From the sequence record OP079919.1: 64,000 nucleotides of DNA. The stretch is one strand, 5' to 3'. The notes under the pieces were generated by a model. That model searched no databases. It was not told the DNA's origin and saw only the letters and a list, made by a program, of their open reading frames with translations. Shown here piece by piece: positions 2,645-4,846 of this stretch; positions within the stretch are counted from its first letter, which is position 1; the number at the start of each line of letters is the position of its first letter. This DNA is from Klebsiella phage KPN8. The translations under genes and the position numbers were made by a program.

Positions 2645-2761
2645 ATGAATATCATAATGCCATTAAAGCTACTCGGAGGGTTACTTATCCTGGGAGTGGG
2701 TTTTGGATTACTGGTTTATCTCATTGTTAAACTCTCCGTTAAAATGGCGTATAAAAAATGA
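2645..2761 (+). CDS. 38-aa hydrophobic micro-protein (MNIIMPLKLLGGLLILGVGFGLLVYLIVKLSVKMAYKK)
   Basis: Below the ORF-track cut-off. SD TAGGAGAT 5 nt upstream of the ATG. Its stop TGA overlaps the ATG of the downstream gene (ATGA at 2758). Single predicted TM helix. Confidence 0.45.
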   Translation: MNIIMPLKLLGGLLILGVGFGLLVYLIVKLSVKMAYKK

Positions 2762-3225
2762 GTGAAGAAGAGCTGTCATTAGGTTATATTTCGGTTAAAG
2801 TCATTCCCACTCAGGAAGGGATTCTTAAAGATAAGGTGTTGGATGCAGGCTGTCTTCCGTTAGATGAAGGGTCGTACCACGCTACGCTTATTTTTGATAT
2901 TCATCAGGATGGCGTCATTCCCAACGTACCTATGATTCCTGAAAAGATCTTCGAGGGAAAGGTTATCGGAATCAAGGAACTCGGAGAGCGTAAAGGAGAT
3001 ATTATCTCAGCCGTTGTACTCGAACTGGATTCTCCTGAACTGGCAGAAGAACACGATCGGTTAATACAATGTGGGTATGGTCATTCCTATCCGGATTACA
3101 TCCCCCATATTTCGCTCGCTTACAAGGTCACAGAAGAGCAAATGGAAGATCTCAAACGACAGTGTGAGTCGCTTATTGGTAAAACGTTCTACTTATCCGG
3201 AGAAAGCATCGACTGGATAGATTAA
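2758..3225 (+). CDS. 2H-phosphoesterase superfamily protein (LigT/CPDase-like; Acb1-like candidate)
   Basis: 155 aa with two H-x-T/S-x motifs flanked by hydrophobic residues (YHATLIF near residue 51, PHISLAY near residue 117). Spacing is about 66 aa, typical of the 2H fold. Confidence 0.6.
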   Translation: MSEEELSLGYISVKVIPTQEGILKDKVLDAGCLPLDEGSYHATLIFDIHQDGVIPNVPMIPEKIFEGKVIGIKELGERKGDIISAVVLELDSPELAEEHDRLIQCGYGHSYPDYIPHISLAYKVTEEQMEDLKRQCESLIGKTFYLSGESIDWID

Positions 3226-3238
3226 GAGGTAAAGGGGT

Positions 3239-3667
3239 ATGCCTGATAAACTTACTGTATCACTTTTTAAGCTTATAAAAAACCACACTGGGTTAACGTT
3301 AAAGGAAGGCGAATTCTCTTTAACGGGAGAAAGACCCTTTTGGTTCAGAATACCTCCTTTTCCCCTTAACCCTAGTTCAAGAGAGAGATTGAGAGATCTC
3401 TTTCAAGATAACTTTGATGTGACTGTAGTTGATTATGTTGACGATTACCAGATCATATTCAGCCAAATTGAACCAACAACTTCTCGTCGTATAAAACGCG
3501 TCAGGAACATCCTAGATGTGTTAGAAAGAGAGTACGGTAGAAACTGTCTCAGACCAGAAACCGGTAGAATCTTGAGCGGATATTACTCTACCCATAAAGA
3601 CAGAATAGAACAGGAAGAACTTGCTTATAATAAAAAGATTTTAAATGAAGCGTTACGAAGACGTTAA
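3239..3667 (+). CDS. hypothetical protein
   Basis: 142-aa ORF. SD GAGGTAAAGGGG upstream. Confidence 0.5.
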   Translation: MPDKLTVSLFKLIKNHTGLTLKEGEFSLTGERPFWFRIPPFPLNPSSRERLRDLFQDNFDVTVVDYVDDYQIIFSQIEPTTSRRIKRVRNILDVLEREYGRNCLRPETGRILSGYYSTHKDRIEQEELAYNKKILNEALRRR

Positions 3668-3708: not shown

Positions 3709-4029
3709 ATGACGTACAATGAAGTCGAGAAATATCTGGAAATGGGAGAGGCCGTCTCTAGGCGTAGTTGGAAAGCGAACGAAGCGGTTTATTTAGAGCC
3801 GACGACGTTACTTAATCCAGCGCACTATCCTGAGTGTTTAAAAGCCGCAGGTATTAACTCCCTTTTGAGAGTCGATCGACATTTAGTGCGTGTTACCGCG
3901 AGTAACACTGTTGAGCGTTTTATTCCCAACTTTGTAGAAAGAAACGAAAACGATTGGTACGTTAAAAGTTATACCTTCGAACAAAATAAAGCATTACCAG
4001 AACATAATCAAGCACAAGAAGTCGCATAA
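3709..4029 (+). CDS. DUF2829-like protein (Tad2-like candidate)
   Basis: N-terminal MTYNEVEKYLEMGEAVSRRSWK fits the DUF2829 N-terminal signature (F/Y-x-E-A/V-x-x-x-L-x-x-G-x-x-V-x-R-x-x-W). C-terminal FIPNFVERNENDWYV fits the DUF2829 C-terminal W/F-x-P-S/N-x-x-D-x-x-A/N-x-D-W-x-V signature. Confidence 0.55.
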   Translation: MTYNEVEKYLEMGEAVSRRSWKANEAVYLEPTTLLNPAHYPECLKAAGINSLLRVDRHLVRVTASNTVERFIPNFVERNENDWYVKSYTFEQNKALPEHNQAQEVA

Positions 4030-4045: not shown

Positions 4046-4060
4046 TACACTTAGATTTTA

Positions 4061-4089
4061 ACCAGGAGAGGCGTAAGCCTCTCCTGGTT
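4061..4089 (+). terminator. rho-independent terminator (ACCAGGAGAGGC-GTAA-GCCTCTCCTGGT) plus TTATTTTA
   Basis: 12-bp perfect inverted repeat followed by a T-run. Confidence 0.65.
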
Positions 4090-4163
4090 TATTTTACATG
4101 TATTCTTTTTTGGATCGATATTATTTATGTGTAAACCTCAATAACTTTTTAGGAATCAACATC

Positions 4164-4379
4164 ATGAACGGTCTTTTTGGAACAGGTTGTTTGCTGTTAG
4201 GTGCTGCAGTGTATTTCTTCCTGAAGTACCTGGAACTGCGTAAAGATTTTAAAGAGAATAAGATTAAAGACAAGGGTCGGGCGTCTGGGTATAAAAATGC
4301 CTATTTCTCTTTAACCATTTGTGTTTTGGGTCTGGGTGTCTTTTTAATGGTTAATGGGACTCTGTTGGAGATCAGATAA
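4164..4379 (+). CDS. small membrane protein (two predicted TM segments)
   Basis: Start chosen at the ATG preceded by the TTTTTAGGAATCAACATCATG motif. This is an in-frame later start within track ORF 4098..4379. Confidence 0.5.
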   Translation: MNGLFGTGCLLLGAAVYFFLKYLELRKDFKENKIKDKGRASGYKNAYFSLTICVLGLGVFLMVNGTLLEIR

Positions 4380-4846
4380 TGGATATCGTTATGCTGACCG
4401 ACGCAGAAACAGTTTTGGATGTCGTCGATGCAGAGGAATACTATCTTCCTACGGGAATTATGCGGCATTGGATACAGATGGCTATCCGAAGAGGGCCTGG
4501 GCATTGTAGGGCGTTTTGGTTTGAAGGCGGGATCTTTGTTTTGACCAAAATACCCTTAACAGGTAATAATACATGGAACGCTTCGATTTGGATTTCTGAA
4601 GATTACAGGCGAAAGGGACTGGCCAAGCGAATAACAGTTTTGGCTTTGGATATGTTCAGACTGGCTAACGCGACTCTACGTTTCCATCCTTGGGATCAGC
4701 GTAGCGTTGCATTCTTTTCTAATTTGGTTAACGAGGGATTGTTGACCGGGAAGAATTTTGGGGATATTGGGTCCAGACGTCTTTTATCGTCTGAACTCCT
4801 TAAAGATCCGGAAACCTTTACATCCCAGCGCGTTGAGCTGGTTTAA
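4379..4846 (+). CDS. probable GNAT-family N-acetyltransferase
   Basis: Motif-A-like YRRKGLAKRITVLAL. ATG overlaps the upstream stop (TAATGG). Confidence 0.4.
   Translation: MDIVMLTDAETVLDVVDAEEYYLPTGIMRHWIQMAIRRGPGHCRAFWFEGGIFVLTKIPLTGNNTWNASIWISEDYRRKGLAKRITVLALDMFRLANATLRFHPWDQRSVAFFSNLVNEGLLTGKNFGDIGSRRLLSSELLKDPETFTSQRVELV

Follow-up and report, generated by a model that had tools for sequence, protein, structure and literature searches.

The window analysed here, a 64,000-nt stretch of DNA from the jumbo phage Klebsiella phage KPN8 (OP079919.1), encodes a 155-aa protein that is an ordinary member of the known Acb1 family, and this assignment is secure. CBASS immunity uses cyclic-nucleotide alarm signals, which enzymes of the Acb1 family destroy. 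Judged from its sequence, the KPN8 protein is probably a phosphodiesterase that destroys the CBASS messenger, encoded by the second gene of a four-gene unit and translated in coupling with an independent micro-protein gene. The family assignment is not new, being already present in public databases through Pfam-derived annotation and UniProt.

The gene lies in a region of phage accessory genes with many short + strand ORFs. DNA of the locus was 95–97% identical to that of the ~250-kb Klebsiella jumbo phages Miami (Miamivirus) and phiKp_32 and of 'Stenotrophomonas' phage BUCTxx100, and Raoultella phage VB_ZK_P1 showed 92% DNA identity over a 3.1-kb query. Phage BUCTxx100 (OR529409.1) shared 95.6% DNA identity with the Klebsiella phages over the region, and it looks as if its recorded host is questionable or its host range unusually wide. 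The features of the locus are as follows.

2279–2310, + strand: terminator-like hairpin after the preceding gene, 12-bp stem (ACTCCCTCTCCC/GGGAGAGGGAGT), read from the sequence
2634–2639, + strand: Shine-Dalgarno sequence AGGAGA, 5 nt before the ATG of the micro-ORF
2645–2761, + strand: micro-protein gene, 38 aa (MNIIMPLKLLGGLLILGVGFGLLVYLIVKLSVKMAYKK), one predicted transmembrane (TM) helix and a basic C-terminus
2758–3225, + strand: acb1, Acb1-family 2H phosphodiesterase gene, 155 aa, start overlapping the micro-ORF stop (ATGA)
2878–2886, + strand: first catalytic motif of acb1, H41-A-T43, aligned to T4 Acb1 H44/T46
3106–3114, + strand: second catalytic motif of acb1, H117-I-S119, aligned to T4 Acb1 H113/T115
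3239–3667, + strand: ORF142, unknown protein, own Shine-Dalgarno sequence (−7.3 kcal/mol)
3709–4029, + strand: 106-aa protein with a Tad2-like (DUF2829) domain, last gene of the unit
4060–4089, + strand: strong intrinsic-terminator-like hairpin, found by scan, with 8 GC pairs in its 13-bp stem and a T-run after it, with a Miami terminator at the equivalent place

In Pfam, the 155-aa protein matched the Acb1 family (PF23474) with a score of 49.1 bits, where the gathering cutoff is 27 (E = 6.4e-13). In the same Pfam search PF13563 (2_5_RNA_ligase2) scored 20.3 bits, below its cutoff of 27, and PF02834 gave no match. It also matched PHROG family 755 (E = 1.5e-24), which carries the label 'RNA ligase'. 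When the PDB was searched by sequence, the sole significant matches were the Acb1 of Erwinia phage FBB1 (7T26) and PDE-9 of Burkholderia phage BCSR5 (9Q2G/9Q2Y). The former (7T26/7T27) and T4 Acb1 (57B) are the founding anti-CBASS 2H phosphodiesterases, and PDE-9 is a viral 2H phosphodiesterase (PDE) of structural group 3. Identity to the T4 and FBB1 enzymes was ~20% over the whole structure and 37% over a 70-residue core.

A HMMER search of 1.84 billion representatives returned 277 homologues at E ≤ 1e-3, and 111 single-domain homologues were chosen from them for the family alignment. All 111 matched Pfam Acb1 at E ≤ 0.001, and 47 also touched PF13563. H41 was invariant among these homologues, with Y10, T43, G106, H117, and Y122 conserved in at least 90%; taken with the Pfam and PHROG scores, these matches lie far outside chance expectation. 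Searched against the PDB, the 111-sequence profile matched 7T26 (E = 1.9e-22) and 9Q2G (E = 3.2e-21), and none of its matches at E ≤ 1 was a LigT or CPDase. The LigT/CPDase enzymes compared (D. radiodurans 5H7F, Arabidopsis 1FSI, E. coli LigT 5LDI) are larger, at 170–190 aa; they lacked a significant match to the family profile, and their structural scores fell clearly below those of Acb1-type enzymes.

The AlphaFold2 model built from the family alignment was confident (pLDDT 90.8, pTM 0.86) and had a compact 2H phosphoesterase fold, nearest to the solved Acb1 structures. Foldseek ranked Acb1-type structures above LigT/CPDase, with an E value of about 0.2–1 for E. coli LigT. In the viral structure library BFVD, the best match was a truncated Miami orthologue, followed by other jumbo-phage proteins named Acb1. 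The UniProt name of the Miami orthologue is 'Anti-CBASS protein Acb1', and the phiKp_32 protein, 98% identical, carries the same precomputed Pfam Acb1 call. The published Acb1 supplements (PMC9117128, 10.1101/2025.08.21.671373) make no mention of Miami or Klebsiella phages. A preliminary description of this DNA had preferred an Acb1-like 2H enzyme over an RNA-repair enzyme or CPDase, and the Pfam threshold, the family profile, and the ligand-contact residues all favour that choice, as does the comparison of the predicted structure with the Acb1 and LigT types.

Acb1 domains also occurred in other architectures. Many of those found were located inside larger proteins of 301–912 aa, at either end, as fusions with unknown partner domains. 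The family profile also matched the C-terminal part of the portal protein of cyanophage Pam3 (8hds_A, residues 482–605, E = 5.9e-8), which suggests that a 2H phosphoesterase domain is fused to this portal protein.

Both catalytic motifs of the 2H superfamily are present in the KPN8 protein. The sequence YHATLIF occupies residues 40–46, with the H41 codon at 2878–2880, and PHISLAY occupies residues 116–122, with the H117 codon at 3106–3108. Residues H41, T43, H117, and S119 align with the HxT/HxT tetrad, with Ser in place of the second Thr. Across 112 family sequences, the His of the first motif was invariant and its Thr was found in 111, while Ser was the majority residue in the second-motif column (86 Ser, 26 Thr). 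The preliminary description had thus recognised the two motifs (HxT and HxS) correctly, and it was right that the protein is similar in size to Acb1, which has about 150 aa; its spacing of about 66 residues was a minor slip, as the two histidines are 76 residues apart. It had also placed a 38-aa ORF at 2645–2761 that overlaps the start of the gene by ATGA, and both the coordinates and the overlap proved correct.

The gene model given here differs from that in GenBank for phage Miami (CPT_Miami_080), in which the protein has 129 aa, begins at an internal GTG, and is labelled 'RNA ligase'; the same model is found in UniProt/BFVD A0A873WM59. We rejected the GTG start (position 2836 of the window), as homologues align from residue 7–9 and Tyr10 is near-invariant. 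The 129-aa model would also remove strand b1 (residues 7–15) and helix a1 (residues 17–29), which were predicted with an AlphaFold2 pLDDT of 95. Based on the homologue alignment, the conservation of Tyr10, and the predicted b1 and a1, we conclude that the 155-aa gene model is correct. The gene was under strong purifying selection, with a pN/pS of 0.05.

Four + strand genes, the micro-ORF, acb1, ORF142, and the Tad2-like gene, lie between the two hairpins with no intervening + strand terminator. The site equivalent to the hairpin at 2279–2310 is annotated as a terminator in Miami, and this hairpin is likely the upstream boundary of the unit; a simple scan missed it because its T-run is not immediately adjacent. 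The hairpin at 4060–4089 marks the downstream boundary. Searching the intergenic region 2269–2644 against Rfam gave only sub-threshold, chance-level matches centred on the hairpin, and no sigma-70-like promoter was called in the same interval. The spacer upstream of the micro-ORF is 375 nt long in KPN8. In phiKp_32 an IS200/IS605 TnpB gene, which adds ~1.4 kb of DNA, sits in it directly before the micro-ORF, so the spacer evidently tolerates insertions.

The last gene of the unit, 480 nt downstream of acb1, encodes a protein that passed the Pfam threshold for the Tad2-like domain (PF11195, 29.9 bits vs a cutoff of 25) and resembles Tad2 (DUF2829) sponges in its small size and in its location, in a phage accessory region beside another anti-signalling gene. 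Its relatives carry the same precomputed call. However, the protein had no detectable sequence match to the solved Tad2 structures, and single-sequence and profile searches of the PDB yielded no relevant match. Its AlphaFold2 model had a pLDDT of 45.7; since only four close homologues were available, the alignment was shallow and the model did not confirm the Tad2 fold. Proteins of the Tad2 type act as sponges that soak up the signals of Thoeris, CBASS, and Pycsar (PMC12393519), and genes directed against host defences often lie in clusters (PMC9117128). Given this tendency and the Tad2-like neighbour, the context of acb1 fits an anti-defence role, and the four-gene unit looks like a small anti-signalling operon. 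ORF142, which lies between acb1 and the Tad2-like gene in an order conserved in relatives, had no match in Pfam, NCBIfam, or the PDB, and its PHROG match was weak and non-significant (E = 0.0067); its position alone makes it a candidate for an anti-defence role. No protein of the operon matched a model in NCBIfam. Immediately beyond the operon, an ORF at 4379–4846 resembles GNAT acetyltransferases (PF00583, 21.6 bits vs a cutoff of 20.7) and overlaps the stop of a 2-TM ORF at 4098–4379.

T4 57B was aligned with the family, and the residue roles were taken from Hobbs et al. (PMC9117128). The equivalences were as follows.

T4 Y12, KPN8 Y10: stacking
T4 H44/T46, KPN8 H41/T43: catalytic
T4 W74, KPN8 L75: stacking residue in T4; Leu is the majority residue in the family sample
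T4 F107, KPN8 Y111: stacking
T4 H113/T115, KPN8 H117/S119: catalytic; Ser is the majority residue
T4 E141, KPN8 D152: adenine contact; the short C-terminal alignment was inspected partly by eye

Most ligand-contact residues of T4 Acb1 were thus kept, with Y10, Y111, and D152 as conservative equivalents and W74 replaced by L75. Compared to T4 Acb1, the KPN8 protein has an HxS second motif, Leu at T4 position 74, and no C-terminal lid: its last residue aligns with T4 K144, and the T4 lid (residues 145–152, including W147) is absent. In PDE-9 a 15-residue N-terminal lid (residues 1–15) closes the active site, whereas the KPN8 protein has ~6 residues before strand b1 and 9 residues before Tyr10, compared to 18 in PDE-9. 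The KPN8 enzyme therefore has neither the T4-type nor the PDE-9-type lid. Both termini were also short in 64 of the 112 sampled family sequences, indicating that lid absence is not peculiar to the KPN8 phage and that not every protein of the Pfam family has a lid. W153, beside D152, might partly substitute for it. With its lid deleted, T4 Acb1 no longer had an effect in a Panoptes activation assay, and PDE-9 without its lid still cut 3'3'-cGAMP but lost activity on a poorer substrate (10.1101/2025.08.21.671373). The missing lid matters in view of these deletion results, and it makes any assignment of substrates to the KPN8 enzyme tentative. Some structural groups of viral 2H PDEs had no activity on a panel of 18 messengers, and PDE-9 selectively avoids 2'3'-c-di-AMP.

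We considered two other roles for the enzyme, as an Acb1-family member with substrates that differ from, or are narrower than, those of T4 Acb1, and as a housekeeping RNA 2',3'-cyclic phosphodiesterase or RNA-repair enzyme of the LigT/CPDase type that acts on phage or host RNA ends rather than in immune evasion. A different substrate range, which we regard as unlikely, would follow from the lack of both lid types. Such an enzyme might spare 2'3'-c-di-AMP and thus not trigger Panoptes, or might target cA3 or other oligoadenylates. The lids missing from both termini and the W74-to-L75 replacement are in line with this, as are the differences in substrates between and within the structural groups of viral 2H PDEs and the finding that lid removal from PDE-9 mainly hit the less preferred substrate. 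However, Doherty et al. conclude that specificity is set by the enzyme core and not by the lid, the core of the KPN8 protein most resembles the broad-spectrum enzymes of group 3, and short-tailed proteins are the majority of the family sample. A broader proposal, distinctly improbable as a whole, combines the shifted range with the surrounding genes: a lid-less Acb1 branch would cut CBASS signals and spare the Panoptes-restraining 2'3'-c-di-AMP, within one multi-signal anti-immunity operon that includes the Tad2-like sponge and an unknown protein, and its translation would be slaved to a micro-protein with a role of its own. A shift in substrate range caused by the missing lid is the most interesting possibility that remains. 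A role in RNA repair is very unlikely. The GenBank and PHROG label 'RNA ligase', which would agree with it, is a historical name that was also given to T4 57B, since shown to be Acb1. The sub-threshold match to 2_5_RNA_ligase2 and the homologues that touch this Pfam family point the same way, and Acb1 chemistry also passes through a 2',3'-cyclic phosphate, but the protein clearly stands closer in both sequence and structure to Acb1 than to any LigT or CPDase, and neither an RNA ligase nor a kinase accompanies the gene in the operon. In the nearest relatives outside Miamivirus, the Acb1 homologue lies directly after RNase H or one gene away from it, and one of these relatives also has an NAD-dependent DNA ligase nearby; this context, the sole hint towards an RNA-repair role among the comparisons, is one of nucleic-acid metabolism rather than anti-defence and counts against the anti-CBASS reading.

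The micro-ORF in front of acb1 is very probably a genuine gene. As read directly from the sequence, the ATG of acb1 (2758–2760) overlaps the TGA of the micro-ORF (2759–2761). The AGGAGA Shine-Dalgarno sequence, the ATGA overlap, and an intact micro-ORF were found in all five related genomes, one of which is only 85% identical in DNA, and the records of Miami, VB_ZK_P1, and BUCTxx100 list it as a CDS. Amino-acid changes among the five genomes were confined to six positions of the micro-protein (N-terminal residues 1, 4, 5, and 6, and the changes G19S and A35V). In comparison with the Raoultella phage, 10 of 15 substitutions were synonymous (pN/pS 0.16, binomial p = 6e-4). Together, the synonymous excess and the conservation indicate that the micro-protein is very probably a real peptide under selection. 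It is hydrophobic, with a maximum 19-residue Kyte-Doolittle mean of 2.5.

The predicted duplex with the anti-Shine-Dalgarno sequence had an energy of −7.3 kcal/mol for the micro-ORF and −1.5 kcal/mol upstream of the acb1 ATG, so that the micro-ORF has the only good ribosome-binding site for the pair. Since acb1 lacks its own Shine-Dalgarno sequence and the micro-ORF has a good one, coupling by termination and reinitiation is a reasonable expectation, and it is plausible that translation of acb1 is coupled to that of the micro-ORF through ATGA.

No family match was found for the micro-protein in Pfam, PHROG, or NCBIfam. A tblastn search of phage sequences gave no match, probably owing to masking of the hydrophobic query by the low-complexity filter, and a degenerate DNA pattern for the conserved core found nothing in IMG/VR. 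Next to other Acb1 homologues, different genes occupied the upstream position: RNase H, 13 nt upstream, in the 59%-identical homologue P0002, a 106-aa non-hydrophobic protein in Vibrio phage USC-1, and dihydrofolate reductase in Erwinia phage Joad. In a scripted survey of IMG/VR loci, queried with a 10-sequence alignment, none of ~40 distant loci had a small hydrophobic ORF upstream of the Acb1 homologue, whereas in eight the homologue overlapped a larger, unrelated gene upstream by 4 nt. A 4-nt overlap likewise joins T4 57B to 57A, a small chaperone gene. Among the loci compared, the pairing of micro-ORF and acb1 looks lineage-specific, being confined to the Miami-like phage genus rather than a property of the family. 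Because the pairing is so confined and 4-nt overlaps are common, we consider the overlap to be ordinary phage gene packing that probably drives acb1 translation, and we do not take it as a sign of a two-component system. Several other small ORFs with TM helices lie nearby, at 1821–1925 (34 aa), 1918–2268 (116 aa, helix at the N-terminus), and 4098–4379 (93 aa), suggesting that small membrane proteins are a general feature of this region.

The micro-protein is most likely functionally independent of Acb1, and two other explanations were weighed against this. It could be a functional partner that tethers or regulates Acb1 at the membrane, where many CBASS effectors act. Such a partnership would account for the overlap and the shared ribosome-binding site kept in five genomes and for the purifying selection on the micro-protein, yet it is exceedingly improbable, given that an upstream small hydrophobic ORF is missing from the ~40 distant loci and from P0002, that 4-nt overlaps with unrelated genes are common, 57A/57B included, that characterised Acb1 enzymes are soluble and act alone, and that the region around the gene is rich in small TM ORFs. 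Alternatively, the micro-ORF may serve only as a translational leader, loading ribosomes for acb1 and yielding a peptide without function. The lack of a Shine-Dalgarno sequence for acb1 and the failure to find homologues or a family match for the peptide agree with a leader, but we think this quite unlikely: the predominance of synonymous substitutions, although drawn from just 15, and the TM core, almost unchanged across the five genomes (G19S only), argue for selection on the amino-acid sequence of the micro-protein.

We therefore favour an Acb1-family phosphodiesterase directed against the CBASS messenger and expressed together with an independent micro-protein. The analysis shows the homology, the fold, the conserved residues, the purifying selection, and the gene order; enzymatic activity, substrate range, the effect on CBASS, and translational coupling are inferred. 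By homology, H41 and H117 of the tetrad, with T43 and S119, would perform metal-independent acid-base catalysis. A cyclic di- or trinucleotide would be held in the U-shaped pocket of the beta-sheet through aromatic stacking by Y10 and Y111, and attack of its 2'-OH on the 3'-5' phosphodiester would open the ring, with a 2',3'-cyclic phosphate as the intermediate. The CBASS messenger of the Klebsiella host may in this way be destroyed before the effector is activated. The enzyme itself would be translated by ribosomes that terminate at the TGA of the micro-ORF.

The practical value of these results is limited, and they leave the knowledge of the Acb1 family unchanged. They correct the GenBank gene model and the 'RNA ligase' and 'hypothetical protein' labels for Miami-like Klebsiella jumbo phages. 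The four-gene unit is a likely anti-signalling cassette, which is relevant to the choice of therapeutic Klebsiella phages against strains that bear CBASS or Thoeris. For the family, the absence of the lid from most of the sampled members raises a question on substrate binding by Acb1 enzymes that would be cheap to test.
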